From an uncultured archaeon (GTDB lineage Archaea > Thermoproteota > Nitrososphaeria > Nitrososphaerales > Gagatemarchaeaceae): 64,000 nt of DNA. The first letter of the stretch is position 1. Every line of letters starts with the position of its first letter. The notes below the pieces were generated by a model that saw only the letters and a list, made by a program, of their open reading frames with translations, was not told the origin of the DNA and ran no database searches. The stretch lies in NCBI GenBank assembly GCA_963817525.1, contig CAWFOU010000007.1:672001-736000 (forward strand), written 5' to 3'. Shown here in pieces: positions 5,802 to 30,735 of the stretch. A program made the position numbers and the translations under genes.

Positions 5802-6359
5802 CTATCTTTTGACGAAGATGTTAACCCTGGAGGCACCTGTCAACTCTTCCGCTATCCGCTTGGCCACCAGCTTCGCGGGTTCCCGCAGGCCCACGCGGTT
5901 CTGGATGTCGTCGAAGGAGGTGAAGGGCTGCTTCTCCCTCATATCGATGATTGTCTTCATGAACGTCTTCCCGATCCCGGGAATCAGCTCGAGCCCATGG
6001 AGGCGCGGGGTGAGGGGCTGCAGCTCGTTGAAGTACGCCACGTATCTGGCCTCGTTGTTCTTCACGATGACCTCGCAGACAGCGAGGAGTTGGGACTTCG
6101 CCTCTGAGGTCAGGTCCTCGTAGGCGAGCTTTCCGAACACGCTGAGGATCTTCGCCCGCCCCTCCCTGCCTATCCTGAGCTTCTCCCCCGTCTCAAAGTC
6201 TTGGTTCTCGGCGGCGAGCAGCTCGAGGAGCGTGAGCCTCTCCTCGCCCAGCGCCTGCACGATGGGACCCTCCCTTCCCTTGATTATGGCCGACCTTCCC
6301 CTGGGGATAAAGTCCAGGACGTAGGCGAATTCCTCATACCTCTTCTCGGATGGAAGCAT
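5802..6359 (-). CDS. DUF655 predicted RNA-binding protein
   Basis: YEEFAYVLDF, RLHGLELIPGIGK; conserved neighbour of rpo4. Confidence 0.9.
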   Translation of the reverse strand: MLPSEKRYEEFAYVLDFIPRGRSAIIKGREGPIVQALGEERLTLLELLAAENQDFETGEKLRIGREGRAKILSVFGKLAYEDLTSEAKSQLLAVCEVIVKNNEARYVAYFNELQPLTPRLHGLELIPGIGKTFMKTIIDMREKQPFTSFDDIQNRVGLREPAKLVAKRIAEELTGASRVNIFVKR

Positions 6360-6476
6360 TTTCCGCTATGACAACCCCTTTGGCTCATTCTTCGAGTGTT
6401 ACGGGAAAAGCGGCACAGCAAGAAACATAGCTAAGCAACATGCGCTCTTCAGGGGTCTAAAGCGCCCCCTTGCTAT

Positions 6477-6818
6477 TTAATCTTTGGACTTTAGTATCTT
6501 GAGTATCTTTTCCAGCGTCTCGGTCGGAAGGAGCTTCCTCCATCCCGCCGTGAAAGTCCTGAGCTCCTCGATGGACCTCGGCATGATGTTGACCACCTCG
6601 GTGGCCTCGATCTCGCTCAGGCCACAGTCGGTCTCTAGCTGCTTCTTCAGCTTCTTCGCCGCTTCCGGCGTGCTCTTCGCGAACTTCGAAGTGTAGTCGA
6701 GCGTCCTCTTCTGGATTTGGTCGGCCTTCTCCACGTCGATCTTCTCCAGGATCTGGTGCGCCTCGCTCAGCGTGAGCGTCTTCTTCTGCCCCGAGGGCGC
6801 GATGGGCTCTGCCGACAA
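6477..6818 (-). CDS. rpo4: RNA polymerase subunit Rpo4 (RpoF)
   Basis: QKRTLDYTSKF, VVNIMPRSIEELR; synteny with L21e and DUF655. Confidence 0.9.
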   Translation of the reverse strand: MSAEPIAPSGQKKTLTLSEAHQILEKIDVEKADQIQKRTLDYTSKFAKSTPEAAKKLKKQLETDCGLSEIEATEVVNIMPRSIEELRTFTAGWRKLLPTETLEKILKILKSKD

Positions 6819-6819
6819 G

Positions 6820-7110
6820 CTACTTCTCGGCCTCTCCCAGCGGGACGATGTGCTCCTTCCTCGAGATCACCGTCTTCACCTTATCCCCAACGTTCACGTC
6901 TATGATCACCGACCTTCGCCCGGTCTCCTTCACCACGCCCACGAGGCCGTTGAACCTCCTGTGGGGCATGCCCTTGACTTGGGTCGAGTCGATTTTGATC
7001 ACGACATTCTGCCCTGGTGTGTAATCGGTGAGGATGTGGCTGAGACCGGTCGAGTCTCTCTTCCTGAGGAGAGAACGCGTTCTCCGCCGGTATCCATGTG
7101 ACCTCGCCAT
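6820..7110 (-). CDS. rpl21e: 50S ribosomal protein L21e
   Basis: SHGYRRRTRSLL, KGMPHRRFNGLVG. Confidence 0.97.
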   Translation of the reverse strand: MARSHGYRRRTRSLLRKRDSTGLSHILTDYTPGQNVVIKIDSTQVKGMPHRRFNGLVGVVKETGRRSVIIDVNVGDKVKTVISRKEHIVPLGEAEK

Positions 7111-7194
7111 AGAAGAACCGTTGCCGCCCCTCCGACCTCATTTAAAAGCTAATCCATGGGTGGGCCGTGTTTCCAGTAGGTTTCAGGGGCGGTT

Positions 7195-8298
7195 TCAACT
7201 GACCGCCGCCTGCCTAGGCCACACGCCCATTATGTCGAACCTCTCGCACCTGAGAGGCGTCCCCATCGACTCTGAGAATGACGGGGAGACGGCCTCGCCC
7301 GAGACCAGCCTCTTCACCGGGAGGCCTCCGTCCAGCTTGATCTCGGCAGTAATCTTCTTCCCGCGAGCGCTGGCCTTCACGAAGTAGACCTTCTTGTCGA
7401 CCAGCCTCCCCTTGTTGTTCCTGTATTGCACAGTGGCGTTCCTCATCCCCCTCTGGAGCCTCTTGACGTCTTCCGCCGAGGCAGGCCGGTCCGAGCTTAT
7501 CACGGCCAGGGTCTTGAAGACGAACGCGGGGTGCTCCACCTTCTTGACGACGACGCGGATGCCCGACACCGACATCCCGCCCTCTCCCGTCCTGAGCCTA
7601 AGAGCCTTGGGAGGGTGCCGCGTCCGGGGGTTCTTCGACTCGATCACAATCGGCCGGCCCGGCGGGAAGACCGCGCTGTCGGAATCCTCGCTCCCGAACC
7701 ACGTGAACTTGAACTTCTTGGAGCCTAGGAGGGCCCCGAGCTTCTTGGAGACCAGCCCCTCGACGCTGGGAGAGGCCGAGTACCCGGTGCCCTGGCACTT
7801 CTCGCAGCCTCTGCCGTTGCAGTCCGCGCAAAAAAGCCGCCGCTGCGCGACCCCGCGCGGCTTCGTGTACCTGCCGTAGAGGAAGAGGGGCCTCGAAGTG
7901 ACTGCGACGCTCCCATCCCCCATGTCGACCAGGACGGTGGCGTCGGGGCGGAGCCTGTCGACCTTCCTTCCGCGCATCTGCTTCACGACCGCCTTCGCGA
8001 GCCGGCCGGCCAGTTCCGACTTTATCGTCTCGCCCCCTCTTATCTTGAGCTCTGACCTGAGCGTGTCCTCGCGCTCCTGGATTCCGTGCGGGAGCATCAG
8101 CCCGACCGAGAACGTCCTGAACTCGAACCTGCCCAGGCGGGAGACTATCCTCTCGGCGACCTCCCCGAGGTCTCCCGACATCCCCTCGCAGATGAAGCAG
8201 CCTTCCTCGTCTCCCGCGAGCGCGATGCCGGACTGTCTCGCCCCCTGCCTGTCGCGGCAGAACCCGCAAAGACGAAACTCTAGGAGCTTCTCAGCCAC
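7195..8298 (-). CDS. pus10: tRNA pseudouridine(54/55) synthase Pus10 homologue (divergent)
   Basis: N-terminal CxxC pairs, LYGRYTK.RG..Q, GSEDSD, PGRPIVIE..NPR, DGGL.VK.LVSG; synteny. Confidence 0.85.
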   Translation of the reverse strand: MAEKLLEFRLCGFCRDRQGARQSGIALAGDEEGCFICEGMSGDLGEVAERIVSRLGRFEFRTFSVGLMLPHGIQEREDTLRSELKIRGGETIKSELAGRLAKAVVKQMRGRKVDRLRPDATVLVDMGDGSVAVTSRPLFLYGRYTKPRGVAQRRLFCADCNGRGCEKCQGTGYSASPSVEGLVSKKLGALLGSKKFKFTWFGSEDSDSAVFPPGRPIVIESKNPRTRHPPKALRLRTGEGGMSVSGIRVVVKKVEHPAFVFKTLAVISSDRPASAEDVKRLQRGMRNATVQYRNNKGRLVDKKVYFVKASARGKKITAEIKLDGGLPVKRLVSGEAVSPSFSESMGTPLRCERFDIMGVWPRQAAVS

Positions 8299-13933: not shown

Positions 13934-14710
13934 TCATCGAATCTTGCAGATCTCGGGCATCTGTCTCTTGTGCTCCGAGGCCTTGTATTTCGCGAGGATG
14001 GCGTCGAGCTTCGGACGGCTAAGCTTCAACCTCGTAGCCACCGCCGATGTGGTGAGCCCCTCTTCGAGCTTGAGCTTGAACACCTGGTCGACGACGTCGT
14101 AGGTGCTGCCTATCTCGTCCTCGGCTATGTGCCCGGGCCAGAGCCTCGGGCTGCTGCGCTTCGCCACAATCCGCCTGTTTATTCCCAGCGCCTCCCCGAG
14201 CCTCCTCACCTCCGTCTTGTAGAGGTCGGCGATCGGGAGGATGTCGACCCCGCCGTCGCCGTACTTTGTGAAGTATCCGAGGAGGAGCTCCGATCGGTCC
14301 CCCGTGCCGACGACCAACCTGTTCGTCATGTTGGCATGGTAGTAGAGGAGGGACATCCTGATCCGCGCTCTGAGGTTCCCCTCGGCGAGCCGGTTGGACT
14401 CTAACGACTTCATGTACGCCTTGTGGATTGGGGCGACGTCGATCTCCTTCACCTCGATGCAGAGCTCGCTCGCGACGAGCTTCGCATCCCTGACGTCCTC
14501 GTCGGGGGTGGCCCTGAGGTCTGGCATTATCAGCCCCATGACCCGCCGGCTGCCAAGGGCCTCCACGCAAAGGTAGGCGGTGACGGCGGAGTCTATCCCC
14601 CCGCTGATGCCAAGGACCGCCCCCTCGGCCTGACTCTCCTCCACCTTCTTCTTGATGAAGGAGACGATCCTGCGCTTGACGGAGGAGTGGTCGAGCTCTG
14701 TGGCTAGCAA
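13934..14710 (-). CDS. nadE: NH3-dependent NAD+ synthetase (probable TTG start 14710)
   Basis: LGISGGIDSA, GNLRARIRM, GYFTKYGDG. Confidence 0.95.
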   Translation of the reverse strand: MLATELDHSSVKRRIVSFIKKKVEESQAEGAVLGISGGIDSAVTAYLCVEALGSRRVMGLIMPDLRATPDEDVRDAKLVASELCIEVKEIDVAPIHKAYMKSLESNRLAEGNLRARIRMSLLYYHANMTNRLVVGTGDRSELLLGYFTKYGDGGVDILPIADLYKTEVRRLGEALGINRRIVAKRSSPRLWPGHIAEDEIGSTYDVVDQVFKLKLEEGLTTSAVATRLKLSRPKLDAILAKYKASEHKRQMPEICKIR

Positions 14711-14866
14711 GGAGTCGTTCTCTGGCTGACGAAGTTGAAATAGTTTCTCTTTTTTTGGCTGGTTCTGTGGAGCCTCACAGGCCCGCGCCCGCTCCAAAGC
14801 CACCATCAGCAGAGCAATCTACCCAAAACGTCAAATGACTCCGACCCACTCTACACCAAGTGCCTC

Positions 14867-15632: not shown

Positions 15633-16853
15633 ATGGCGAAGAGGGACCTCAGAGACCGGCTCTTCTGGCTGGCGAACGAGGCCGAGATCAAGGATGCCAA
15701 GACCACCGACATCTACTTCCTCAACACCAAGGAAATTCTGACGAAGAACCACATAGACTCGGAGGTCGTGATGGAGGTCTTCGCGCGAGACCTCCCTGAG
15801 GAAGGCACGTGGGGAGTCCTTACTGGCGTCTACGAGGTCGCGAAGCTCCTTGAGGGGCTGCCCGTCGACGTCTGGGCCTTCGACGAGGGGTCGATCTTCG
15901 TGGCCGACGGGAGGGGCGCCCTGTACGAGCCCGTGATGACCATCTCGGGGAGGTACAGGGACTTTGTCGAGTACGAGAACCCGATCCTTGGCCTTCTAGC
16001 GTCCTCGTCGAGCGTCTCCACGAAGGCGTCGAGATTCAGGGTCGCCGCAGGAGACAGGCAGGTCATTAGCTTCGGGACGAGGAGAGTGCACCCCGCGCTC
16101 GCCCCGCTCATCGAAAGGTGCTGCTACATCGCGGGCTTCGACGGGGTGTCCAACGTCCTCGGCGGCAGACTGCTGGGCGTGGAGCCGTCCGGCACCATGC
16201 CGCACGCGCTGGTACAGGTAGTCGGGGACCAGGAGAAGGCGTGGAGGCTCTTCGACGATACCATGCCAAAAGCCGTGAAGCGGACCGCCCTCGTCGACAC
16301 CTTCTGGGACGAGAAGACCGAGGCCATCAAGGCCTTCGAGACGCTCGGGAAGAACCTGTGGGGGGTCAGGATCGACACGCCGTCCTCCAGGAGGGGGAAC
16401 TTCAGGCAGATCATCGAGGAGGTAAGGTGGGAGCTGAAGATCAGGGGCGGCGGCGACGTCAAGATATTCGTCTCGGGTAGGCTGAGCGAGGAGGACGTGG
16501 TCCAGCTCAAGGACATCGTCGACGGGTTCGGGGTGGGGACGGCCGTCGCATACCCGCCGAGCATCGACTTTAGCGCCAAGATAGTGGAGGTCCGCGAGAA
16601 GGGCAAGACCTACCTCAGGGGCAAGAGGGGAGGGCTCGGCGGCAGGAAGGACGTCCACAGGTCGAAGGGTTTCAGGGACACTGTCGCCTTCCACGGCTCG
16701 GCTCCCCCCAAGGGGTCGAAGCAGATGCTGAAGCAGATAATCGACAAGGGCGAGCTGACGGCCGGCTTTCAGAGCATCGACTCGATTCGCGAGAGGGTCG
16801 CGAGGGAGCTCCGCGAGGTCACCCAGGCCCAGCCCTCGCTCGTCTGGGGTTAG
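15633..16853 (+). CDS. pncB: Nicotinate phosphoribosyltransferase
   Basis: TTDIYF, SFGTRR, GTMPHAL, LVDTF, VRIDTPSSRRG, FGVGT. Confidence 0.95.
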   Translation: MAKRDLRDRLFWLANEAEIKDAKTTDIYFLNTKEILTKNHIDSEVVMEVFARDLPEEGTWGVLTGVYEVAKLLEGLPVDVWAFDEGSIFVADGRGALYEPVMTISGRYRDFVEYENPILGLLASSSSVSTKASRFRVAAGDRQVISFGTRRVHPALAPLIERCCYIAGFDGVSNVLGGRLLGVEPSGTMPHALVQVVGDQEKAWRLFDDTMPKAVKRTALVDTFWDEKTEAIKAFETLGKNLWGVRIDTPSSRRGNFRQIIEEVRWELKIRGGGDVKIFVSGRLSEEDVVQLKDIVDGFGVGTAVAYPPSIDFSAKIVEVREKGKTYLRGKRGGLGGRKDVHRSKGFRDTVAFHGSAPPKGSKQMLKQIIDKGELTAGFQSIDSIRERVARELREVTQAQPSLVWG

Positions 16854-16869
16854 GCTCGGGGAGATGGTC

Positions 16870-16940
16870 GACGCGTGGCAGTTTCGTCTTCATCCTGACT
16901 CGCGTCAGTCGAGGTTGCCCGTCGAAGCACGCCACGCGTC
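16870..16940 (-). ncRNA. Putative small structured ncRNA (non-tRNA); integration target
   Basis: 10-bp closing stem GACGCGTGGC/GCCACGCGTC, second stem, two hairpins capped by GNRA loops (GCAA, GCGA) on minus strand. Confidence 0.5.
16925..16940 (+). repeat. attL of outer element, AAGCACGCCACGCGTC
   Basis: Perfect 16-bp direct repeat with 30620-30635; 12 bp upstream of integrase ORF. Confidence 0.85.
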
Positions 16941-16952
16941 CCTTGCCCTACG

Positions 16953-18185
16953 ATGTTAAAACGCTATTCAAGCTATCGGGACGGTGAAGACGGGACGCTA
17001 TACAACTACGACTACTGGCTGAAGAACGCCTGGGAGATGCTCGACCGCTCGCCCAAGGTCAGCCAGCAGGACAAGGAGCGGGTTAGGGCGTTCGTCGAGA
17101 ACCTCAGAGTGAGGGCCCTGGGGACGGGGAGGCTCGCCAAGCACGTCCAGAAGCTCAAGGTGATGCTCGAGATCCTCGACGTCCCGCTTGACAGGGCGAC
17201 CAGGGCGGACGTCGAGAGGCTGGTCCTCGCGCTAGAGGAGAGGCACCTCCGCCCGGTCACCCTGATAGACTACCTCTTCATCATCAAGCGGTTCTTCAAG
17301 TTCGTGAAGTACGGGAACGTGGACAGGGAGACCCCCTACCCGGCGGAGGTGGCCTGGATCAAGAGGAGGATGAAGCCCAGCGAGGGCAGGACGGCCGAGT
17401 TCCTCACGCCCTCGGAGGTGAAGGCCATGATAGCAGCCGCCGAGAAGACGCGCGACAAGGCGATGATAGCCGTCGGGTTCGAGGGCGGGTTCAGGACGGG
17501 CGAGCTCCTGGGCCTCGAGATCCGCGACCTCTCGTTCGACGAGATGGGGGTGAAGGCGAAGGTGAGGGGAAAGACGGGAGAGCGGATCGTGAGGCTGATA
17601 TCGAGCGCGCCCCTCCTGACCGCATACCTCGAGACCCACCCGGAGTCGTCGGACCCCAGCGCGCCGCTGTGGCTCACGGAGGTGGGGAACTGGAAGAACA
17701 AGAGGGTCTCGTGGAGGGGGTGGAACGGCTCGCTCCAGTACATCGCGAAGAAGGCGGGCATCAGGGGAAAGCGCATCCACAGCTACCTCCTGCGGCACGG
17801 CTCGGCCACCGACGCGGCGAAGTATCTCTCCGACGCGGAGATGAAGGTGAGGTACGGCTGGACGATGGACTCGGGGATGCCGGCGGTCTACGTCCACCTG
17901 AGCTCCCAAGACCTGGACCCAAAGCTCGCGAGGATGTACTCAGGGAGGCCCCTGGAGCCGCAGAGGCCCGAGTTCGCCCCCGACGCCTGCCCAAGGTGCT
18001 CAGAGAAGAACACCCCAGGGATGAAGTTCTGCGGGAGGTGCGGTACGCCGCTGAATCGTGCTGAATTGGCCAAATCCTCGATCGAGACGCAGGAGATGAA
18101 GAACGACCTCCAAGACATCAAGAGGCTGCTCAGCGGATACCTCTCTCCAGGCTCACAAAACCCAACCGGAGGTAATGACAACTGA
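16953..18185 (+). CDS. Tyrosine integrase with C-terminal zinc ribbon
   Basis: GFEGGFRTGELL, KGKTG-like RGKTGER, HSYLLRHGSAT, RYGW...MPAVYVHL, CPRC...CGRCG. Confidence 0.93.
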   Translation: MLKRYSSYRDGEDGTLYNYDYWLKNAWEMLDRSPKVSQQDKERVRAFVENLRVRALGTGRLAKHVQKLKVMLEILDVPLDRATRADVERLVLALEERHLRPVTLIDYLFIIKRFFKFVKYGNVDRETPYPAEVAWIKRRMKPSEGRTAEFLTPSEVKAMIAAAEKTRDKAMIAVGFEGGFRTGELLGLEIRDLSFDEMGVKAKVRGKTGERIVRLISSAPLLTAYLETHPESSDPSAPLWLTEVGNWKNKRVSWRGWNGSLQYIAKKAGIRGKRIHSYLLRHGSATDAAKYLSDAEMKVRYGWTMDSGMPAVYVHLSSQDLDPKLARMYSGRPLEPQRPEFAPDACPRCSEKNTPGMKFCGRCGTPLNRAELAKSSIETQEMKNDLQDIKRLLSGYLSPGSQNPTGGNDN

Positions 18186-18266
18186 TTCGGGACAGTGAAG
18201 CGATGACCAAGGCCACCATGTGCTTCTCTGCCCGCCGCAGGTGCCTACCAACAGCATGAAACACAC

Positions 18267-18464
18267 TCAACCGATGTGCCTCTCGAGCCTCTCGACAAGC
18301 GCCAGAACCCTCTCCAGATCAGAGCGCTTGACGCGAATGTAGGGCTCTTCCACGTCTGATGGGCCCCGGTTTTCGCCGGCATGCGAGTTGAAAACGGCGG
18401 CGTCTTTGACCTTGGAAAGGGAGACAAGTCCGACGTCCGGATCCAGATTACTTGAGGCCTTCAT
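18267..18464 (-). CDS. Small hypothetical protein or fragment
   Basis: 65-aa ORF with amphipathic C-terminus; no recognisable family. Confidence 0.25.
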   Translation of the reverse strand: MKASSNLDPDVGLVSLSKVKDAAVFNSHAGENRGPSDVEEPYIRVKRSDLERVLALVERLERHIG

Positions 18465-18596
18465 GGATGTCTGGGCACACGCGACTTTTAACGACGGTGA
18501 GCAAGGACGAGATGCTGGCGATGGTAGGGGCTTTCGCAGCCGCGCTACCCAGTTGGTACAACGAAATCATGGCTGCCGCGGCCACTTGATCCGTTC

Positions 18597-19385
18597 TCAA
18601 GATGCGCGGAAGTACGCGAAGACAAGCGCGCCCCATTCGTCCTCCGCCAGAACCGTGTATGTCCCAGGGTGGAAGCTTGTGAACGTATCTCCCTGATAGT
18701 ACCCAGAGACGGTCAAGGGATTCAAATTATAGGTCGCTGTGGCATTCCCTGTCGGGCATGGACTCACGCCGACGCAGCCGTATGAGGCGCCCCCGTCGCT
18801 CGTCGGTTGGAAGAGAAACCCAGTCGGGTTCCCGTACCCGAAGTACACCGGGCAGTTGGGCGTGGCTAAGGGGTCGACAAGGTCCAGCTGCCTTGCAGCT
18901 GTGACGTTTGATGACGTATAGTATCCCTCGGCCATGGCGAAACGTACGGTGTCGCTCCCGCAGACTGCCACGTTGGTCCCGTTAATAGGGACCGCCCAGT
19001 CGTTCGCGGACGTAACATTGGCAGTGGACGAAGAAGGATTGTAGACGTCGGCGAACAAGCTCACGTTCACCCCTGTCGCGGATGACGATGAGGCGTTCAG
19101 ATAGAGTCGGAGTTCAAGGCCGTTCGTGGGATTAGTAGCTGTCGTCGCTGTCAACGTTGAGGTCGCTGTTGTGGTTGACGTCGTAATCAAAGTCGTGGTC
19201 AAGGTTGAGGTCGACGTGCTGGTCGACACGACCGTCTCGGTCGCGGTAAGCGTCGTGGTCGATGGATGTGTGAAGGGAGGCTGGCCGATGACGACCACGG
19301 CAAGAGCGGCGGCAAGTATCACAGCGATCAAAGACAGGCCCACTATCGCTCCTGCGATTGCAGGGCTGCGCCGCCGAGACGACAT
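18597..19385 (-). CDS. Membrane-anchored Thr-rich extracellular hypothetical protein
   Basis: TM helix, poly-Thr linker, NGLELRLYLN...GTYTVLAEDEWG C-terminal domain. Confidence 0.75.
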   Translation of the reverse strand: MSSRRRSPAIAGAIVGLSLIAVILAAALAVVVIGQPPFTHPSTTTLTATETVVSTSTSTSTLTTTLITTSTTTATSTLTATTATNPTNGLELRLYLNASSSSATGVNVSLFADVYNPSSSTANVTSANDWAVPINGTNVAVCGSDTVRFAMAEGYYTSSNVTAARQLDLVDPLATPNCPVYFGYGNPTGFLFQPTSDGGASYGCVGVSPCPTGNATATYNLNPLTVSGYYQGDTFTSFHPGTYTVLAEDEWGALVFAYFRAS

Positions 19386-19489
19386 GGCTGTCTAGGCGAA
19401 AAGACCAAGGCTCGTTTTAAATCGTTTGGAAGAATCGTCGGGTTCAGCTTCATTGGCAGGGTTGTAGGCTGAGCTGGATTAATTGGGCT

Positions 19490-19705
19490 GGTCGGAGCCC
19501 GTCGTCCCCGACCATGTTCCCCTGGACCTTGGGCCTGAACCCGCAGAAGGTGATGAGGGAGATTGAGGCCTTCGCCCTGATGTCGGCACGTCGAGGATTC
19601 TCCTGAGCTCCTGCCGGGTGCGAGGCACCTCTTTTCTCGTACGTGTAGTCCAAGGCGCCGTAGATTCTGATGCTCTTGGGGGTCTCGATCGAGAGCGAGT
19701 TGTCG
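19490..19705 (-). pseudogene. Frameshifted fragment of an integrase paralogous to 19916..21205
   Basis: Across frameshifts reads IRIYGA...TRQELRRILDV/ADIRAKASISLITFCGFRPKVQGNMVGDDGLR, aligning by eye to VNIKGT...[43 protein letters not shown]. Confidence 0.75.
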
Positions 19706-19838
19706 ATTGTAGTGATGAGACGACAGCTAAAGACGGTCAGACAAATCCGTCAAGCTCACTGCCAAGGTCCGGGTTAGCTTGCATCGACCGAAACGCGGAC
19801 TTTTTAGCGTCGTCCCCCCGGTAGGATTCTCCTAAAAT

Positions 19839-19858
19839 AATTAGTTGCATCCCTTCCG
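19839..19858 (+). repeat. Left att-like site of inner element, AATTAgttGCATCCCTTCCG
   Basis: Direct repeat with 30518-30537 (12-bp perfect core, 18/20 overall); upstream of integrase. Confidence 0.7.
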
Positions 19859-19915
19859 GCCCACTTAAACTCTTAAGAGAATCCCTTATTAGAAACCGAG
19901 TTCCCAAGGGAAAAC

Positions 19916-21205
19916 ATGCCCGCTGGGAGCAAGTACAACCACCTTCTCGAAGATCAGGACGTCCGCAGATGGTTTGAGAACCTCGAAGCGAAGTCGATCA
20001 TAACCGCCACGGTCTATCTTCGGACGATGGGACTCTACTGCGTGCTCGAAGGGACGACCCCAAAGAAGATACTCGCGGAAGCCAAGTCCAAGAGATTCCG
20101 CGACGAGTTCACGGACTTTATCCGGCGGATGGAGAAAGACGGGAAGGCTGGCTCCTACATAGAGCGGTTCAAGAAGGTCATCCTCTCCTGGACCTTCTAC
20201 AACAACCTCGACGTGAAGCTGAAAGTGAACATCAAGGGCACGTCAGAGACGCCAACAATCGCCAACGAAAGGATCCCGAGCAAGGACGAGCTTTCGAGGA
20301 TTCTCCGGATGGCCTCGCTTCGAGGAAGGGTCTCCGTTGCGATGATGGCGTTCAGCGGTCTGAGGCCGGAGAGTCTCGGCGACTACCTAGGAACGGACGG
20401 CATCAGACTCGCGGACTTCACGGAGGCGAAGATATCTGGCGCTAGGGTTGAATTCGAGAAGGTTCCGGCGATCCTGCTCGTCAGGAGAACCCTGAGCAAG
20501 GCAAGACATCCATACTTCTCGTTCGTGGGGACCGAGGCAATAACCTACATCCAGGAGTACATTCAGGAAAGGACCAAGTCCGGCGAGAAGCTGACCCCTG
20601 AGAGCCCTCTGCTGGCGTTCGACCCGAGAGGCGTAAGGAAGAACGCTTTCCTGAGAACCATCCTTGTGACTCGGGACATCAAGGAGGCGATAACGAAGGC
20701 AGGATTCACTTGGAGGCCCTACGTCCTGAGGGCCTACTGCGACACCAACATGATAGTGGCCGAGTCCAAGGGCCTGATTTCTCATCCATACCTCCAGTTC
20801 CTCATGGGGCACAAAGGGGACATTGAGGCCAGGTACTCCACCAACAAGGGCAGGCTCCCGCCTACGATGATCGAGGAGATGAGGGCAGTTTACAAGAAGT
20901 GCGAGCCCCTGCTCTCCACCAAGGCAGAGTCCGCCAGCGAGGAGCAGATCAAGAAGACACTGAGGGAGCAGTTTCTCGTTGTGGCGGGATTCAAGAAGGA
21001 AGAGGTCGAGAAGATGAACCTCGAAGAGATGACCGACGAGGAGCTCCAGAACGCCGTGAGACAGAGGCTGGTCGGCATGATGACCGGCAACGGTTCGAGG
21101 CAGAAGGTCATCCCGATTCAAGAGGTAAGGTCATTCATCGGGCAGGGATACGAGTACGTGGCGTCGCTCCCTGACGGCGGGGCGATAGTGAAGGTGCCGT
21201 TCTGA
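19916..21205 (+). CDS. Tyrosine site-specific integrase
   Basis: [34 protein letters not shown]. Confidence 0.92.
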
Positions 21206-21216
21206 GGGCGAGAGGC

Positions 21217-21687
21217 ATGCAGAGGCACGACTTCTACGATGTTCTCGGTGTTGCGAGGACGGCATCGAGCGGAACAATCAAGGAAGCCTACCGGAGGCTG
21301 GCCATCAGGTATCACCCCGACAGGAACAAGTCTCCCGACGCGGAGGAGAAGTTCAAGGAGGTCTCTCAGGCCTATTTCGTCCTGTCAGACGCCGAGAAGA
21401 GAGCCCTTTACGATGCTCTAGGCCCTGACAAATACGACGACCCTAAGGAAGTCTTCCGCTACTACGTCGAGCGTGAGGCGACTGCGCGCGAACTGAAGCG
21501 GGAGTACGAGGAGTCCAGGTCAAGAGAGCAGACCGGCATCATAGAATCGATGGGAGTGATCCTCTTCGGCCTCCTCGTGATAGACTTCGTGATTCCTACG
21601 TGGGTCTTTGGCCCATGGTTCTATGTGTTCAACGCCTTCCTTCTCCTTGCCCTCGTCAGCGGAGTCTACAGCTGGTCCAGGGCTTGA
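21217..21687 (+). CDS. J-domain (DnaJ-like) protein with two C-terminal TM helices
   Basis: DFYDVLGV...[29 protein letters not shown]; hydrophobic C-terminus. Confidence 0.88.
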
Positions 21688-21712
21688 TTCAACAAAAGGA
21701 GACTCGCTTGTG

Positions 21713-22243
21713 ATGGCCCTTGAATTTCTGAAGAGACGCTTCCGCGTGCAGAGGCTGGGAGACCTGACCCTGAACTGGATAAAGGTCCTCGCCTACCTGG
21801 AGAGCTCGAAGAGCGGAAGCAGGGAACCGTCTGCCGAGAAGCTGGCAGACGAGTTGGGCCTGGGGTCTGAGAACGTCATAACGGTCTACGCCTACCCCGC
21901 CCTTCGCAGGAAGGGATACGTCAGGCTGCTCGCCAGCAACCTGCCGGAGAGGGACGCCAACTCCTACGAGCTGACCCCGAAGGGCAGGAAGGCGCTCGGG
22001 TACTTCCTCAACACGTTCGGGTTCGCGGAGATGGGGACAATGGTAGTCGTGAGCCTGATTGTGGGGGCTGTGATTGGGCTGATGTCCCTCGCATACCTCC
22101 AGAACCCTCCCTTCTTCCCCCTTGCCCTGGGCTTGGTCATCTTCGCTGCCGTCATCGAAGCCTTCTTCTTCGCGTTCTCCGTGTGGGCGGCAAGGCAGAG
22201 GAGGAGAGAGGTGCTCCAAATCATGCTTCAAAAGCCCGAGTGA
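21713..22243 (+). CDS. Winged-helix protein with two C-terminal TM helices
   Basis: SAEKLADELGL...LRRKGYV...YELTPKGRK then two hydrophobic segments; AAGGAG upstream. Confidence 0.7.
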   Translation: MALEFLKRRFRVQRLGDLTLNWIKVLAYLESSKSGSREPSAEKLADELGLGSENVITVYAYPALRRKGYVRLLASNLPERDANSYELTPKGRKALGYFLNTFGFAEMGTMVVVSLIVGAVIGLMSLAYLQNPPFFPLALGLVIFAAVIEAFFFAFSVWAARQRRREVLQIMLQKPE

Positions 22244-22335
22244 CTTTGAGAGAATCGTAAGGAATAGCGGCGCAGAAACTGAGCTTCTCGGCTCACTCCC
22301 GGCGTCTATCATCTTACCACGCCATACTATGTGCC

Positions 22336-22512
22336 ATGCAGAATGTCGTGGACGTTCATCCGCTAAAGAGGACGGCAGCGAAGATCCTGCCTGACGACTC
22401 GATTCTGCGCAGGGTGCTGCTGTCGGAGCCCGATTCGTTGGAGGCGGGGGAATACGTCGCCAAGCTGGGCACATGGCTCGTGATTCTGAGGGAGGAGAGG
22501 ACGACGGATTGA
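22336..22512 (+). CDS. 58-aa helical protein (absent from ORF track), coupled to ATPase
   Basis: MQNVVDVHPLKRTAAKILPDDSILRRVLLSEPDSLEAGEYVAKLGTWLVILREERTTD; stop overlaps TTG start of ATPase (TTGA 22509-22512). Confidence 0.7.
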   Translation: MQNVVDVHPLKRTAAKILPDDSILRRVLLSEPDSLEAGEYVAKLGTWLVILREERTTD

Positions 22513-24413
22513 ACTTCTGGAAGTCCAAGCAAAGACGCGAGGACGAAGAGGAGGAAGCGGAGGCGTGGAGGCGGCAGCAGGAGTTCGAGGAGCAAGAGAT
22601 GAAGAGGGTGGAAGAGAGGGAGAAGCGTTGGAGGGAACTGCAGGAGAAGTACCACGTAGGCCGGGATGAGATAGAATACCAGTCGACGTCAGGCCTCGAC
22701 CATTGGAACCCCCGTCACCACGAGGAGCAGAAGCCGACTCCAGGGCACGTTGGGATAATCAGGATCGTCCAAAGGAACTCCGGCGAACAGTCCCAGTCCG
22801 AGCCTTACCGTAACGAGGAGTTCAGGTTCAAGTGGATAAACGAGGTCAAGAGGGTCGAGAGCAAGGAGAACGCGAACGTCTTCACGAGCGGGGCGTCGGG
22901 GGCCGGGAAGAGCAGCCTGGTCCGGCTCCTCCTCCGAGAATTCGAGGGACGACAGAAGGTCATCTTCTCGTTCAAGGTGAACGACACGCACCTCAGGATC
23001 GGCTATCCTGTCGCCGACGTAAGCGAGCTCGTCCCCAACCCGTTCGCGGATGTCGAGGCCTTCGTGAGCGCCTTTGCGATCGCGTTTCCGGTCAGCACCA
23101 TCGGGGTGACGGCCAGCCAGATCCCTTCTCTCGTCCAAGAACTTGCGTACGGGTGCACCTCCTGGAAGGGCTTCAACCGAAAAGTCGAGCGCAGGATAGG
23201 CGAGACCAAGGACAGAGTGCAACTCTCCGCGCTCTTCTTCATTCAGGGGCAGGCCAAATCCGTTCAGCTTGAAGAGAGTGGGAAGAGGCCCGATGCAATC
23301 AATCAGGCCATCCACACGGGCATGGACATCGTGCTCGACTTCTCTAGGTTATCGGACCCCGCGAAGGCGTTCTACGCCGAGCTGCTCCTCAGAGGGATAT
23401 GGAACGAGATGCAAGGGCAGACGACGGAAGCGAGGAAGAAGATTATCCTCTACGTGGACGAGGCCCACCGCCTCACCCGGGGCACCTTCGAGAAGTACCA
23501 CTCGGTCCTCGTCGAGATGGCGAGGGAGATAAGGGCGAGGGGAGCGCTCTGGACCTCGACCCAGAACTACACCGACATCGAGGACAGGATCAGGAACCAG
23601 TTCGCCACCCAGTTCGTCTTCAACACCTCGTCCAAGTCCGACCTCGAGGCGCTGAAGGCAATCGACCCGATGCTCTCCTGGGCCGTATCGGGGCTCTTGA
23701 AGCACCACTTCGTGGACGCGAAATCCAAGAGTGTTCACAAAGAGATCGAGATCCACACGTTCGTTCCGGAAAGCGAGAAGGATGTCCGACCCACCCCATT
23801 GGGCGAACTTCTAGCTGGAGTACTTCCACAGGAAGCCGGGACCGTAGACTACGACAATACGGTCAAGGAAGCGCTGGCCAAGGAAGGCGTCGTCTGGGTC
23901 TCTGCCCTTGCAAGCCAGTTCAGCAAGGACGGGAGAGTCGACAAGGACTCCGCGAAGCTGAAGGTCAGAGACGCCCTGGAGAAGCTGGTGGACGCTGATG
24001 ACCTTCAGAGGATGAGGTACGACGGAGCCGAAGCTGGCGGGACCATCGTCCTGTACTTCGCGAAAGGCGGGGATGAGAAGGTCAGCAACCTTCACAAGTA
24101 CATGGTGAGGCAGCTCGTCGATAGGCTGCGGGAGAATAACCAGGAGGTCCTCAACGTGGCAGACTCGGGGCAGAGTCTTCCCGATGTCGAGACGGAGAGC
24201 GCGTACTTCGAGATCGAGACAGGCTTGAAGACGAGGACGAGCGACCTTGAGGAGCGCATCTCGAGACTCAGTTCTACCAAGCCGTTCTTCGTCGTTGTTC
24301 CAAATTCCGACTTGGCGGGGAGCGACAGATACAGCTCTCTGAGAAGTCCCAGGGTTACGGTGACAACCCTTGCGCGGTTCCTGAAGGGACAGGCAGTGAC
24401 GCCCCAGCGGTGA
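22509..24413 (+). CDS. HerA/FtsK/VirB4-superfamily ATPase fused to C-terminal PD-(D/E)xK-like nuclease
   Basis: Walker A GASGAGKS, VLDFSRL, Walker B ILYVDEAHRL, STQ..DI...IRNQF; C-terminal LHK...LPDV....FEIETG...FFVVVPN. Confidence 0.8.
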   Translation: MNFWKSKQRREDEEEEAEAWRRQQEFEEQEMKRVEEREKRWRELQEKYHVGRDEIEYQSTSGLDHWNPRHHEEQKPTPGHVGIIRIVQRNSGEQSQSEPYRNEEFRFKWINEVKRVESKENANVFTSGASGAGKSSLVRLLLREFEGRQKVIFSFKVNDTHLRIGYPVADVSELVPNPFADVEAFVSAFAIAFPVSTIGVTASQIPSLVQELAYGCTSWKGFNRKVERRIGETKDRVQLSALFFIQGQAKSVQLEESGKRPDAINQAIHTGMDIVLDFSRLSDPAKAFYAELLLRGIWNEMQGQTTEARKKIILYVDEAHRLTRGTFEKYHSVLVEMAREIRARGALWTSTQNYTDIEDRIRNQFATQFVFNTSSKSDLEALKAIDPMLSWAVSGLLKHHFVDAKSKSVHKEIEIHTFVPESEKDVRPTPLGELLAGVLPQEAGTVDYDNTVKEALAKEGVVWVSALASQFSKDGRVDKDSAKLKVRDALEKLVDADDLQRMRYDGAEAGGTIVLYFAKGGDEKVSNLHKYMVRQLVDRLRENNQEVLNVADSGQSLPDVETESAYFEIETGLKTRTSDLEERISRLSSTKPFFVVVPNSDLAGSDRYSSLRSPRVTVTTLARFLKGQAVTPQR

Positions 24414-24434
24414 CGTGGGGGCCGCTTATTGCTC

Positions 24435-24637
24435 GCCCATAGCATGCAACACCCTTCAGGCTCGTCCTTCGCTCCGCGGCGAATTCACCCCCCGCGATGC
24501 CTTCGGCACCGCTCGCTGCGCTCGCTTCGCTTCCCCCCTCTTCGCCGCTCCGCTCGGACTTCGCCTTCACCCCGCTTCGAAGCGGGGCCGCTCATTGTCG
24601 CTTCGCTTGATTCGCGGGGGTGTTGCATGCTATGGGC
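24435..24637. other. Fold-back non-coding element with 20-bp perfect terminal inverted repeat and internal hairpins
   Basis: GCCCATAGCATGCAACACCC (24435-24454) / GGGTGTTGCATGCTATGGGC (24618-24637); 18-bp palindrome 24570-24587; repeated CGCTYCGCT. Confidence 0.75.
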
Positions 24638-24680
24638 TCGCGAGGAGGGAGAGGAAAGGGGGAAGAATTGGGCTATCCCG
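24629..24680 (+). repeat. G-rich ~52-bp motif, copy 1
   Basis: GCTATGGGCTCGCGaGGAGGGagaGGAAAGGGGGAAGaATtGGGCTATcCCG; matches 28077-28130. Confidence 0.85.
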
Positions 24681-24818
24681 GCGGAAAGAGACGGTTCTCG
24701 AGGCGTACCCCTTCTACGGGTACTACATGCGTCACCGGAGAGGAAAGTAATCAACCTGGTTCTAGTTTCGTAAAATATAAACATAAGAATCGTTCTTTGC
24801 GAATTCGGTATCATCCGC

Positions 24819-25094
24819 TTGTGGCATGGGATTAGGAGGAGGACGTGGAGAGACATTATCGCTTCGGTCCTTGAGTGCCTTGTCAAGGCGCCTTCGACCC
24901 AAAACAAGATAATGACCTCGACAAATCTGAACCGAGACACCGCAAGAGACTATCTTCAAGGGATGGTCTCCCTGAGGCTGGTCAGGACTCTCTCTGACTC
25001 CAAGGAGCACACGATCTACGCCATGACGGAGAAAGGGAGACGCTGGCTCAAACTGTACAAGAGCTTGCTGGCTGAGGAAGAATCGCAGGAATGA
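24819..25094 (+). CDS. Winged helix-turn-helix transcription regulator (HTH_45-like)
   Basis: RRRTWRDIIASVL...KIMTSTNLN...YL...YAMTEKGRRWL. Confidence 0.8.
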   Translation: MWHGIRRRTWRDIIASVLECLVKAPSTQNKIMTSTNLNRDTARDYLQGMVSLRLVRTLSDSKEHTIYAMTEKGRRWLKLYKSLLAEEESQE

Positions 25095-25181
25095 AGCAAG
25101 GACCTCCATCCGAATATCTTCGAAAGCCATTACTGGCGTACGATCACAGCGAAATTTTCTGAGACCATAATCTGTAAAGCG

Positions 25182-25208
25182 GGATTTGTAATCCCGGATT
25201 ACAAATCC
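25182..25208. promoter_or_regulatory. 27-bp perfect palindrome (candidate operator)
   Basis: GGATTTGTAATCC-C-GGATTACAAATCC, just upstream of TATA-like TTTATTA of gene 25273. Confidence 0.6.
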
Positions 25209-25272
25209 GGGATGTTAGATTCTGCATGATTTATTACCCTCGGATTAGTGACATTAGCCGAGGAATCAGAAC

Positions 25273-26091
25273 TTGACCTCAAGAAAGGGCGCACTTGGCG
25301 TAGTGAGGCTTGTGTTCTTCGCGCTGCTTACGCTTCTGTTGCTCAATTCGGTCGGGATGTTGAACCGGTTACCAATGGCCTACGCCCAAACTTACACGTG
25401 CTCCGACCAGTACACAAGCCATAACACTGCTGCTCCTAACGGTGGTGTTGGGTACTACTACGAATGGGCCAGTAGCAGCAACAGTAACGAATACGGCGTC
25501 TATGGCGAGCTAAAGGCCACGTCATGGAATTATGATGGCGATACGTCCGGGCATGAAGTGCTTTGGGTAAACATGGCTCTCTCCGGGGGTTACTGGGCAC
25601 AGTCAGGGGTCGTCGCCGGCGTTTTGCCAGGAAACTCATATTCATCAACTCGGTATCCATATGTGGAGTGGAATGCACCGGGACAGTACTACGCATACAT
25701 TTTCACTAGTTATCCGATTTCTGGCACGGACACGATTTATGCAGAGGACTACGTAGAAAGCTATAGCGGCGGCAACTACTACTACGAAGTGTATGTATAT
25801 AGCACCAGTTACGCAACAGCATGGTATACGACAAAGAGTTTCGGGAGCACATATTATCTAGGTGACCCGACAACAGCAGGAGAGACCTATTACACTCAGA
25901 CTAGTGAGAACTGCGACCTATACGTCAATTACTCCTCGTCGCTTGCCTACTCCTCAAGTGTCAGTTCTAGCCCGTCTTGGACATCCTGGTCAAGTTCTAG
26001 CATCACCTATACCGATACAAATTACACCTATTTCCAGAATAGCGCAACATCGTGGAACTTCTGTTCAGATAACTATGTCAGTTATTGCTAG
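25273..26091 (+). CDS. Secreted Tyr/Ser-rich protein, glutamic-peptidase-like (G1/neprosin-type fold)
   Basis: Signal peptide; YGVYGEL, LWVNM...YWAQSG, YVEW, AGET motifs echo the catalytic Gln/Glu layout. Confidence 0.5.
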   Translation: MTSRKGALGVVRLVFFALLTLLLLNSVGMLNRLPMAYAQTYTCSDQYTSHNTAAPNGGVGYYYEWASSSNSNEYGVYGELKATSWNYDGDTSGHEVLWVNMALSGGYWAQSGVVAGVLPGNSYSSTRYPYVEWNAPGQYYAYIFTSYPISGTDTIYAEDYVESYSGGNYYYEVYVYSTSYATAWYTTKSFGSTYYLGDPTTAGETYYTQTSENCDLYVNYSSSLAYSSSVSSSPSWTSWSSSSITYTDTNYTYFQNSATSWNFCSDNYVSYC

Positions 26092-26104
26092 ATTGAAATG
26101 GAGA

Positions 26105-26848
26105 ATGTTCGAGAGATTGAAAAGCAGAATCGTAATCGCCCTAATCATAACGGCCTTGGCGCTGGGGTCTGGCGTTCTTGTCTCGACCTTTTCGGTTGAC
26201 AGCGCCATCAGCCAAAATGGCATTCCAAGTGCTACTTCAAATGTGAACCCCACTCCCTCGAGTGGTGCGATGCCGATGAAACTGGTCTTGCATACGCCAC
26301 AGTATGTGGAAGGCATCATTCATCAATCATTGATTTTACCGGATGTGACCGTTCTCGGTCCCTCGTACAGGATTCTGGGGGCCATGGTCGAAGGCCCAGT
26401 GAACTTGACTGCGACCAATCAATCACCATGGGAAGTACTCATCTACCTCTCGAACCAGCCTACTTCTTCCTTCGTGAATGGAACCACGACTGACCTTGAC
26501 GTCTTGAAAAGCGGAGGAGTCGTGATCGCCGAAGATGGAGTTCCGACTGGAATGGCGCTGAATAGTACTGCCGCTGCCCAAGCCGATCTGGCACCTCAAG
26601 TGCTTTGCACCGGCAAGGGGATGAATCCGACGCCTGCTGATTCGAGCTGCACGACTCAATCCTACACGGGGAATGGCTATATCGTGACCCAGAATGGGCT
26701 CGCAATTGTTGTGAACCCGGGGGGGCCGGGACTAGTGTGGGTTGACAATAGAAACCGCATGGGAGTGAGTATCGACGGCGATACACAAACCGTTCAACAA
26801 TTGCTGGACCTTGCGAGCACATTGACTGAACCTACGACGACACAGTGA
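26105..26848 (+). CDS. Membrane-anchored extracellular hypothetical protein
   Basis: TM helix after MFERLKSR; C-terminal LVWVD...VSIDG...QQLLDLA. Confidence 0.65.
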   Translation: MFERLKSRIVIALIITALALGSGVLVSTFSVDSAISQNGIPSATSNVNPTPSSGAMPMKLVLHTPQYVEGIIHQSLILPDVTVLGPSYRILGAMVEGPVNLTATNQSPWEVLIYLSNQPTSSFVNGTTTDLDVLKSGGVVIAEDGVPTGMALNSTAAAQADLAPQVLCTGKGMNPTPADSSCTTQSYTGNGYIVTQNGLAIVVNPGGPGLVWVDNRNRMGVSIDGDTQTVQQLLDLASTLTEPTTTQ

Positions 26849-26920
26849 TATGAAACCGGTTTCAGTGTTGTACAACCAGGTCTATTAAGGTCGGAGCATC
26901 ATATTCAGTGAAGGCGCAAG

Positions 26921-27436
26921 ATGAATTCGCCACCAGTCCGTAACAAGCGGCTCTACGCAACCATCGTGGCAGCGATAGTCATCGCCGCGGTTGTAGCCTC
27001 TGCTACCATCATTGCCTCATCTGCACTCTATACCACGGTCACAAAAACTACGACCACCACTGTTTTCCTAGCGTCATCTTCCAGCGCCTGCGGACAACTC
27101 GCATCAACTCCGTTGTTCTTACTCATAGCGAACAGTTCGACAGGAAGGCGGATTAGTGGAGTACCAGTCGAAGTCGAGAAGACCACACCCACCGACTTGT
27201 GCAACCCAATCTCGACAACAACAGTCAACCTTGGCACCATGGAGACGAACGTGAATGGGTCGATTGAGCTCTGCTGCAGTGGTTCAACGTTCTTCTTCAC
27301 ATTCACATATATGGGTGCCCATTACCAATTCAACTCGACAGCAGAAGGGGCAGAGATTGCTCAATGCGTCTGGTTCAGCATACCATCGGCTACATCAACT
27401 ACTGAGTTTGCAGCTCCATTCGACCCTCAATGCTAA
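26921..27436 (+). CDS. Membrane-anchored Thr/Cys-rich hypothetical protein
   Basis: TM helix, Thr linker, prealbumin-like ISGVPVEV...TNVNG. Confidence 0.65.
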   Translation: MNSPPVRNKRLYATIVAAIVIAAVVASATIIASSALYTTVTKTTTTTVFLASSSSACGQLASTPLFLLIANSSTGRRISGVPVEVEKTTPTDLCNPISTTTVNLGTMETNVNGSIELCCSGSTFFFTFTYMGAHYQFNSTAEGAEIAQCVWFSIPSATSTTEFAAPFDPQC

Positions 27437-28076
27437 GTGCCCCGATACAGACTGCAAAACGGCAAGGATAACGGCATTCAATCCACTCGATGCGTAAGAA
27501 GAGGACGGAGGACGCAGTGAGCTTTCCCCCGGGAGGTGCACCCACATGGGAGACGCCCTTCCGCTGCCGTCGGTTCTTCCCTCGTGGGTGCCTCGGCCAT
27601 ACCAAGCGAGGCAGGGCCTCCTCTTAACGCGGCCGAGAGCCGAAAGCGGGTGGAAGCGGGCCCGACGGTCCTCCTACCAGAACGAGTCCACGCCCGTGTT
27701 GATTCTTCGGTCATTTCCGTTAGGCTTGGACATGCTCAGATGAGACTGGCTTTGAGCATATAATTGTGCCAACGAGGTCTCTCGGGACGGGAACCCTTAG
27801 CACCCCATCTCAATCGGATTTTGCTAGGGTGTGAAGGAGAGAATTATTGCCCACGTCTCAAATAATTGCTTGCAGCCCTTCCGAGTTGAACCGAGCTGTT
27901 CTCACTTGGTCTAGAGTCAGGGGATTGTTTCCTCTGGTCCAAGCCGACATCTCCAAATCCAATGGTCCACAATGTGAATTTGAACTCAATTGCGTTTAAG
28001 AACCGGCGACCGCACTTAACTCTTCGCGTCCAAGACACCGACGGTGTCAAAGCGGGAAGTCGAATCTGCGACATAC

Positions 28077-28130
28077 GCTATGGGCTCGCGTGGAGGGGGG
28101 AGGGAAAGGGGGAAGTATCGGGCTATTCCG
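28077..28130 (+). repeat. G-rich ~54-bp motif, copy 2
   Basis: GCTATGGGCTCGCGtGGAGGGgggagGGAAAGGGGGAAGtATcGGGCTATtCCG. Confidence 0.85.
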
Positions 28131-28357
28131 AAAGAAACAAACCCGAAAAGGGATACACCCGTTGAAGGGGTATCTTTCCGCCTATGGTTTCGGTTGATCT
28201 TCTACAGAAGCGCGTTGCCGAGCTGAGCAATCTGGTCGCAGTCATTCACTGAAGCCCTGAAGAACGACGACTGCTTAGTAACATTCCCATGACTACAGCG
28301 GTGTATTTTAACCAAAGCGGTAACCTTTAATAGAAGAATCTTCTGCAAACGATTTTC

Positions 28358-29654: not shown

Positions 29655-29764
29655 TCGATTCCCTTAGGGAGTCATTGATATTCGCGCTCCGGCTTGGGAT
29701 GATCCTTGCTCGGATATTCCAAAAGACGTAATTTTAGTGGAGGCTCCCTTCTTAGTTAGGAGGA

Positions 29765-30394: not shown

Positions 30395-30517
30395 CATGAA
30401 ATCAAATACGACCCGAGTAACCGAAGAGGCTCTATTCAACGGCTTGCCAGCGCGGCGGTTCCACTAGCTCAGATTGTTCTAGGCACTATTCGAAGGCCGA
30501 AGGAGATTCGCTTAAGA

Positions 30518-30537
30518 AATTAATGGCATCCCTTCCG
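30518..30537 (+). repeat. Right att-like site of inner element, AATTAatgGCATCCCTTCCG
   Basis: Direct repeat of 19839-19858. Confidence 0.7.
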
Positions 30538-30619
30538 ACCTTAACCCTTGACTCTCGATTATTCTCACAGACTTCCCACCCAAGGAACCCGGCAAAGTGT
30601 TTCGAACACGTAGCATAAT

Positions 30620-30635
30620 AAGCACGCCACGCGTC
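30620..30635 (+). repeat. attR of outer element, AAGCACGCCACGCGTC
   Basis: Perfect repeat of 16925-16940. Confidence 0.85.
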
Positions 30636-30735
30636 TCCCTTCCGCGGCTCCAGGCTTCGTATATATCATCCGCTCGTCTTGGCGGCGACCTGAAATCGTT
30701 AATTAGCTCTCCCGGCCTGTTTTCCCCGGACGAAC

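Follow-up and report, generated by a model that had tools for sequence, protein, structure and literature searches.

A probable small structured RNA gene family of Group I.1c Thaumarchaeota and its use as an integrase attachment site

Tyrosine integrases exchange strands within a short segment of identity, and their targeting of RNA genes is already known: in tRNA and tmRNA attB sites, a short identity segment within a small, conserved, helix-rich RNA gene is duplicated upon integration. In the accessible part of a survey of 68 integrated elements of Thaumarchaeota, 39 of the targets were tRNA genes, 15 were intergenic and 14 were protein genes, with a median att length of 17 bp and all but one of the tRNA integrations at the 3' end of the gene (PMC6563490). 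The pTN3-like elements of Thermococcales, according to the portion of a review of archaeal tyrosine recombinases available to us, integrate instead in the 5' half of tRNA genes, and the rebuilt tRNA is expressed from a promoter carried by the element (PMC8371274). The terms 'non-coding RNA', 'ncRNA' and 'sRNA' have no occurrences in that review. The accessible parts of the two papers, together with literature searches, yielded no account of the RNA described here or of any non-tRNA RNA target in archaea, and a full-text literature search for structured RNAs in Thaumarchaeota retrieved nothing relevant.

The locus reported here lies in a stretch of 64,000 nucleotides (hereafter the window) from an archaeon of Group I.1c / Gagatemarchaeaceae or a close lineage. 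It resembles the tRNA and tmRNA sites in that a short segment of a small, helix-rich RNA gene is duplicated around an element. As in the pTN3-like elements, the 5' part of the gene is hit, the gene is rebuilt and its upstream region is replaced at the integrase end; the target, however, is not a tRNA, and the core measures 16 bp. Also, the integrase gene is whole and att lies outside it, so that the element is not of the self-splitting SSV/pTN3 type. Relative to the thaumarchaeal tRNA integrations, 3'-terminal save one in the accessible part of the survey (PMC6563490), this integration occupies the 5' end of an RNA that is not a tRNA. The RNA shares covariation, conserved unpaired nucleotides and a conserved neighbourhood with orphan structured RNA motifs such as those collected in Rfam, yet it doubles as a recombination target and occurs in an uncultured, non-ammonia-oxidising thaumarchaeal family. 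What is new is the RNA family, the 5'-end position of the integration and the orphan protein with which the RNA is paired. From sequence comparison, we consider it probable (roughly 0.85) that a genuine RNA gene of a new family stands at the site and serves as attB.

Integrated element and attachment site

The 16-bp att core occurs as two exact copies in the window, attL at 16925-16940 and attR at 30620-30635. None of 100 shuffled sequences contained two or more matches to the core; by-hand arithmetic nevertheless predicts about 0.5 exact 16-mer pairs by chance in 64 kb, so that such a pair is not rare and the empty sites of relatives are the decisive evidence for att. In the five closest loci, whose nicotinate phosphoribosyltransferase gene (pncB) is 82-89% identical to that of the window, the RNA element stands uninterrupted directly past pncB, with one copy of the core followed by a right flank like that of the window, TATA-like box included. 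Left flank, a single core and right flank are contiguous in L001, L004, L020 and L058. The uninterrupted site in these relatives identifies 16941-30619 as an inserted island of 13.7 kb, missing from the homologous site of the four named loci. Thus delimited, the repeats bound an integrase-led island, and the repeat overlaps the RNA gene.

The integrase is a tyrosine recombinase of 410 aa with a C-terminal zinc ribbon (16953-18185, plus strand), and its start codon lies 12 nt from attL. It matches Pfam Phage_integrase (3.7e-14), Zn_Ribbon_1 and PHROG 1, and its match to an NCBIfam XerA-like model (2.3e-20) falls under the cut-off of that model. The island further encodes a 646-aa AAA ATPase-like protein and mostly orphan ORFs, and the GC content of its right half is lower, at 49-53%. 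Comparison of the element DNA with phage and plasmid collections gave no match. The best matches of the integrase in the phage collection were to Geoglobus acetivorans pleomorphic virus 1 (34% identity) and ThalV2 (32%), over 83-85% of the length; the genomes of these viruses measure 13.4-16.2 kb, a size similar to that of the island. The island could be a provirus of the general pleomorphic-virus kind, but the integrase identity is low, and no other island gene is tied to these viruses.

A 36-nt A/T-rich motif is found three times in the island (19832-19867, 27857-27892 and 30511-30546), the copies sharing 64-72% identity with the reference. The ORF at 19916 is 49 nt downstream of the first copy, and the last copy faces out of the right end of the island. 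In the circular form this last copy would read across attP to the integrase gene, and may represent an integrase promoter that is disconnected by integration.

The same site is occupied in a more distant host of a different species. In L033 (pncB 70% identical) an integrase 80% identical to that of the window (325/406) abuts the same end of the same RNA element, which is a second, independent occupation of this RNA-gene site. In L051 the integrase itself is gone and an integrase-end scar of about 49 nt is left, either from a third event or from an old shared one. Exact copies of the 16-mer core are found in only 9 of the 49 members of the RNA family, and the integrase family should therefore be confined to that clade.

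The first-pass annotation, made from the letters of the window, had proposed a target other than a tRNA, and on this it was right: ARAGORN and the Rfam tRNA model, both applied to the window, detected no tRNA at 16859-16945, and no cloverleaf is present. Elsewhere in the window ARAGORN predicts two tRNAs and Rfam three. One Rfam prediction of 91 nt (31309-31399, minus strand) was missed by ARAGORN, and at 55580-55673 (minus strand) ARAGORN calls a 'tRNA-Pyl (cta)' where Rfam finds a 91-nt tRNA. The length of both tRNAs suggests that they contain introns, and the Pyl call is probably an artefact. A tRNA gene about 700 nt from attR was left unused by the integrase.

Structure and distribution of the minus-strand RNA

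The attL core makes up nucleotides 1-16 of a minus-strand element of 71 nt (16870-16940, 5' end at 16940), which is matched by the family covariance model with 100.8 bits (E 8e-21). These 16 nucleotides comprise the 5' strand of the closing stem P1 and 6 nt more. P1 consists of 10 bp (GACGCGUGGC / GCCACGCGUC, 16931-16940 with 16870-16879) and encloses, on the same strand, a GG-GCAA-CC hairpin (16913-16920), hairpin P4 with the sequence CUGAC-GCGA-GUCAG (16895-16908), the motif GAUGAAGA (16887-16894), a CUUC/GAAG stem, and GA and GAUGA beside the junction. The probable 3' tail (16859-16869, minus strand) is pyrimidine-rich, and its UCCC can pair with a GGGA that closely precedes the RNA where the site is empty. 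Folded as a single sequence, the minus strand reaches -35.2 kcal/mol (z -2.75, 1 of 200 shuffles as good) and the plus strand -36.4 kcal/mol (z -2.37, 5 of 200); the fold is moderately unusual and about equal on both strands, so that the window alone proves neither the structure nor its strand. When the empty site is joined, the fold gains two outer pairs and -39.9 kcal/mol is reached in place of -35.2; the first-pass annotation had described an added GGGA/TCCC pairing for this site.

Comparison with relatives provides the evidence for both. A covariance model was built from 12 sequences, and covariation was assessed on 46 distinct rows fitted to it. In this alignment 90.9% of cells are paired, against 25.9-52.8% in slid controls, and 12 of the 24 pairs change on both sides (84 cells), which none of 500 shuffles matched. 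Covariation is concentrated in P1, where 7 of 11 pairs covary and 98% of cells are paired, and in P4, where the figures are 4 of 5 and 99.6%. As the alignment had been fitted to the model, the test was repeated on a plain MAFFT alignment of 48 rows (L035, the weakest match, omitted), on which RNAalifold again yields P1 and P4, with 11 pairs that show compensatory changes. All loci derive from a pncB anchor and from one lineage, so part of these counts is due to shared ancestry, and independent events are fewer than they suggest. The 24 pairs contain 138 G·U cells but only 7 A·C cells, an asymmetry that points to an RNA of the minus strand, the strand favoured from the outset. The flanks diverge freely and the element is nearly invariant.

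The centre of the fold is less well defined than its helices, since near invariance leaves little covariation signal there. The first-pass annotation had described the att core as one arm of a multibranch element with a 10-bp closing stem, a second stem and two hairpins capped by GNRA tetraloops. The position of the core and the closing stem agree with the family data. The second stem does so in part: CUUC/GAAG, the model P2, is present in the window, but it is Watson-Crick only in the clade of the window; most members have U·U and A·A at this place, and 69.5% of cells are paired. Likewise, both GNRA hairpins exist in the window, and the small GG/YC hairpin bears GCGA in 44 and GCAA in 5 of the 49 members, which fits GNRA throughout the family; the apical loop of P4, in contrast, is GNRA in only 10 of 48, and is therefore a feature of a clade and not of the family. 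For the full set RNAalifold prefers another small hairpin (17-20/27-30) that uses the same bases as the model P2/P3, and single-sequence folds of the members disagree among themselves. The sole covarying pair of the centre joins columns 21 and 71 (A-U 28, U-A 13, U·U 4, A·G 1), and a mutual-information scan for a pseudoknot gave no convincing extra helix, returning only this pair and an extension of P4. The terminal helix has 10 bp in the window and up to about 15 bp in many relatives; its five outer extension pairs reach only about half pairing in the alignment fitted to the model, which reflects a register that differs between clades. Beyond the model, the first 15 nt on the 3' side have an A+T content of 55% across the family, compared with 43% overall, and no clear terminator or U-run was seen there.

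In order to assess distribution, pncB was used to fetch 80 loci, 64 of them thaumarchaeal and 16 from Methanodesulfokora or haloarchaea. At E <=0.005 the covariance model has hits in the window and in 48 of the 64 thaumarchaeal loci, always antisense to pncB, and it has none in the 16 Methanodesulfokora and haloarchaeal pncB loci. Five weak plus-strand echoes (E 0.46-0.84) coincide in place with minus-strand matches. The RNA is missing near pncB in 16 of the 64 thaumarchaeal loci, at least 7 of which have more than 2 kb of downstream sequence. Two MAGs contribute two pncB loci each, YP3.bin16 (L008 and L012) and SMAG_U9549 (L010 and L018); in either pair one locus has the RNA and the other has little downstream sequence. 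As far as pncB neighbourhoods were sampled, the RNA family is confined to Group I.1c Thaumarchaeota, that is to Gagatemarchaeaceae and their neighbours; palsa-1368, SubAcS15-15 and SubAcS15-57 are treated as Group I.1c/Gagatemarchaeaceae in the accessible part of PMC10640624.

Promoter, RNA class and gene neighbourhood

A TATA-like box about 25 nt upstream of the RNA, claimed at first pass for the joined site, is found at 30660-30667 (minus strand), 24 nt from the 5' G of the RNA once the flanks are joined; in the window it now lies 13.7 kb from the body of the RNA. A TATA-like A/T run with the same spacing is present in L001, L002, L004, L020 and L058. Among the 48 loci with enough flank (L045, which ends 4 nt beyond the RNA, is outside this count), 37 have the exact string ATAAATA with its end 19-23 nt ahead of model position 1, against a background rate of 0.003 per 60 nt. 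Another 8 loci, including the closest relatives of the window, carry a different A/T run at 18-22 nt, which brings the total to 45 of 48. The three loci without such a run are the window, L033 and L051, all of them occupied or scarred sites. By archaeal promoter spacing, the start of transcription would fall at or beside the first base of the terminal helix. These observations lead us to infer that the RNA gene is transcribed from a conserved BRE/TATA promoter, and the possession of a strongly conserved archaeal promoter of its own would make it a free-standing gene and not a leader.

The element belongs to no family that could be recognized. A scan of the whole window with the 4227 families of Rfam 15 at gathering thresholds placed none at the element, and the Rfam scan of empty sites that the first-pass annotation had put forward as a check, run permissively (E <=10) on L001:6190-6420 and L031:7380-7560, returned only mir-933 (E 4.2) and DdR1 (E 8.7), the DdR1 match falling mostly in the promoter. 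Together with conservation in 48 of 64 thaumarchaeal loci and covariation of P1 and P4, this bears out the early description of a novel structured RNA. By-eye reading of the sequence for a hammerhead core and for a T-loop showed that neither fits, the hammerhead on neither strand.

The best placed of the other readings, albeit an unlikely one, is that of an L7Ae-bound kink-turn guide RNA, that is, an unusual box C/D or H/ACA sRNA, to which the kink-turn resemblance noted at first pass would point. Archaeal box C/D sRNAs have a 5' C box and a 3' D box, with internal D' and C' boxes and guide spacers of about 12 nt; in archaeal H/ACA sRNAs the lower stem is followed at once by an ACA or ANA on its 3' side, and a two-sided pocket for pseudouridylation lies beneath a kink-turn stem; and the kink-turn bound by L7Ae combines tandem sheared G·A pairs beside a 3-nt bulge with a canonical and a non-canonical helix. 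The 3' half of the RNA reads AUGAUGA, which we take to be the C-box consensus, in 35 of the 49 members, and AUGAAGA in 13, the window among them; three GA dinucleotides around the junction are invariant, and for that very reason give no covariation signal for a kink-turn. As a box C/D sRNA, however, the RNA has a single C-like box, located in its 3' half, and lacks a terminal D box, and the CUGR that might serve as D' is base-paired with covariation and reads CUGG in most members. As an H/ACA sRNA it has 3' flanks past the terminal helix that are not consistent with ANA, and an internal loop of 2-3 nt where 5-8 nt are called for. None of the kink-turn registers tried combines tandem G·A with a regular Watson-Crick non-canonical stem, and the C/D and H/ACA models of Rfam score nothing. 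Membership of either guide class is therefore rejected, whereas a kink-turn as such, which the AUGAUGA sequence suggests, may still be present.

The gene neighbourhood bears on a second reading, in which the RNA would act in cis, as an end signal for the convergent NAD-salvage genes or as their antisense regulator, and not in trans. The pncB gene (15633-16853, plus strand), which scores 473.7 bits with NCBIfam NF006415 (cut-off 243), is convergent with the RNA gene, and 16 nt separate the end of its stop codon from the RNA core. The RNA lies downstream of, and convergent with, pncB in every sampled locus that has it, and no strong terminator follows it, so that read-through into pncB antisense is possible. 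The loci were picked by pncB, however, and adjacency to this gene is partly built in. Furthermore, pncB lies anywhere between about 30 nt and 4.8 kb from the RNA, whereas on the promoter side an orphan gene for a protein with four invariant cysteines is found in 45 of the 49 RNA-bearing stretches, 89-162 nt away in 36 of them. Of the remaining four stretches, three run into a contig or locus end and the fourth is the occupied L033. The four-cysteine protein occurs without the RNA in none of the loci, and 16 loci have neither. The variable distance on one side and the steady one on the other indicate that it is the RNA and the four-cysteine gene that travel together. The invariant centre and the long terminal helix also exceed what an antisense start would need, and the cis-acting reading is, in sum, quite unlikely.

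Several features of these neighbourhoods were recorded along the way. NAD synthase (13934-14806, minus strand) adjoins the nicotinate phosphoribosyltransferase gene in the window, and in most relatives pncB and the RNA are separated by a further gene, about 190 codons long, that is absent in the clade of the window. Between the promoter side of the RNA and the four-cysteine gene, extra DNA of 0.76-3.0 kb is present in L051 (6996-8335), L002 and L058 (both about 6330-7590), L015, L031, L036 and L040. The inserts include an IS-type rve_3 fragment in L031, ABC-transporter genes in L040 and a 390-aa orphan ORF in L002, none of them an integrase, and this gap seems to be prone to insertion.

A ligand-sensing or self-cleaving RNA, whether an orphan riboswitch-like aptamer or a small ribozyme, is suggested by a helix junction around some 25 nearly invariant, largely unpaired nucleotides, of the kind typical of binding pockets and active sites. 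On the strand of the RNA, however, no controllable gene follows, no riboswitch or ribozyme of Rfam appears even at E <=10 and, as said, a hammerhead core could be placed on neither strand, which makes this reading very improbable. Least credible of all is a DNA-level element, an inverted repeat to which the integrase, or else a regulator of the four-cysteine gene, would bind with no RNA involved. In its favour are the inverted repeat of the closing stem, which folds about as well on one strand of the window as on the other, the use of the site for recombination, and its position about 100 nt from the start of the neighbouring gene. Against it, the pairs are kept by compensatory changes and not by sequence conservation, the excess of G·U over A·C is explicable only by a minus-strand RNA, a dedicated TATA box aims into the element, and most members keep the structure with the exact att core present in just the 9 mentioned above.

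Proposed function, effect of integration and meaning

The reading that we prefer is thus that of an RNA gene serving as attB. The minus strand at 16870-16940 would encode, as a gene in its own right, a small structured RNA about 75-90 nt long, of a family outside Rfam, transcribed from its own BRE/TATA promoter with a start that coincides with the first base of the terminal helix or narrowly precedes it. The RNA would fold into a long terminal helix, a variable hairpin and a nearly invariant purine-rich centre. A family of tyrosine integrases would use the gene as its attB, in the way that tRNA genes are used, with exchange taking place within nucleotides 1-16 of the RNA.

The protein partner, if there is one, is a matter of more tentative suggestion. 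In the window the four-cysteine protein (160 aa) is encoded at 30736-31218 on the plus strand, and in empty sites its gene is divergent from the RNA gene. The protein has 248 close clusters, the named ones all 'hypothetical', and only 17 representatives among 1.84 billion proteins, a distribution as narrow as that of the RNA family. It has no match in Pfam or NCBIfam, and no usable match in the protein atlas. A first AlphaFold model had a pLDDT of 54, and a second one, obtained with more divergent homologues, a pLDDT of 86; searched with Foldseek against the PDB, the latter gave no fold match (best E 0.29, TM <=0.18) and no hint of RNA binding. Our best guess is that the RNA works as a stable protein-bound particle, and this protein, encoded divergently about 100 nt upstream, would then be the leading candidate for its partner; we put this last step forward tentatively, as something that could well be otherwise. 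Adjacency is the only link between the two, and a shared particle is no more than what we infer from it.

Integration separates the gene from its promoter. The att core being nucleotides 1-16 of the RNA, the native TATA box is left at attR, 13.7 kb away, so that the first-pass proposal of an attB at the 5' end of the RNA with a consequent promoter swap is upheld by the geometry of the site. At attL a complete RNA is rebuilt behind the integrase end of the element, and attR consists of the native promoter and the first 16 nt of the RNA, followed by element DNA. Integrase and RNA point away from each other, and any surrogate promoter must therefore lie antisense in the first codons of the integrase. 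An A/T-rich stretch in these codons, at the place of the TATA box, may keep the RNA expressed. The candidate is the island-borne GATAGCTTGAATAG (16964-16977, minus strand), antisense within integrase codons 4-9, whose A/T-rich end is 23 nt from the 5' end of the RNA, where the native TATA box would be. The window, L033 and L051 share an identical 19-nt string upstream of the RNA, the A/T-rich end of which is 17-18 nt before model position 1; the native A/T runs in the clade of the window end at 18-19 nt. Being antisense to integrase codons 4-9, the string could owe its conservation to protein coding. Retention in L051 of an intact RNA behind the string, with the integrase lost, fits a surrogate promoter and is no proof of one. 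That the RNA and the four-cysteine protein form a new, lineage-specific particle of Group I.1c, and also that the integrase family has evolved an antisense surrogate promoter that keeps the RNA expressed, is doubtful as a joint proposal, and is offered as a conjecture from the arrangement of the sequences.

To our knowledge, the Group I.1c soil archaea have no cultured member and almost no described non-coding RNAs, and a well-supported structured RNA gene is now added to this major group of soil archaea. Its fixed pairing with an orphan zinc-type protein provides a handle on both the RNA and the protein, and the promoter swap at the window, at the occupied L033 and at the scarred L051 amounts to a natural experiment on a promoter supplied by an element. 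Also, thaumarchaeal targets classed as 'intergenic' can hide unannotated RNA genes, and in such cases other small RNA genes are targeted on the same logic as tRNA genes.
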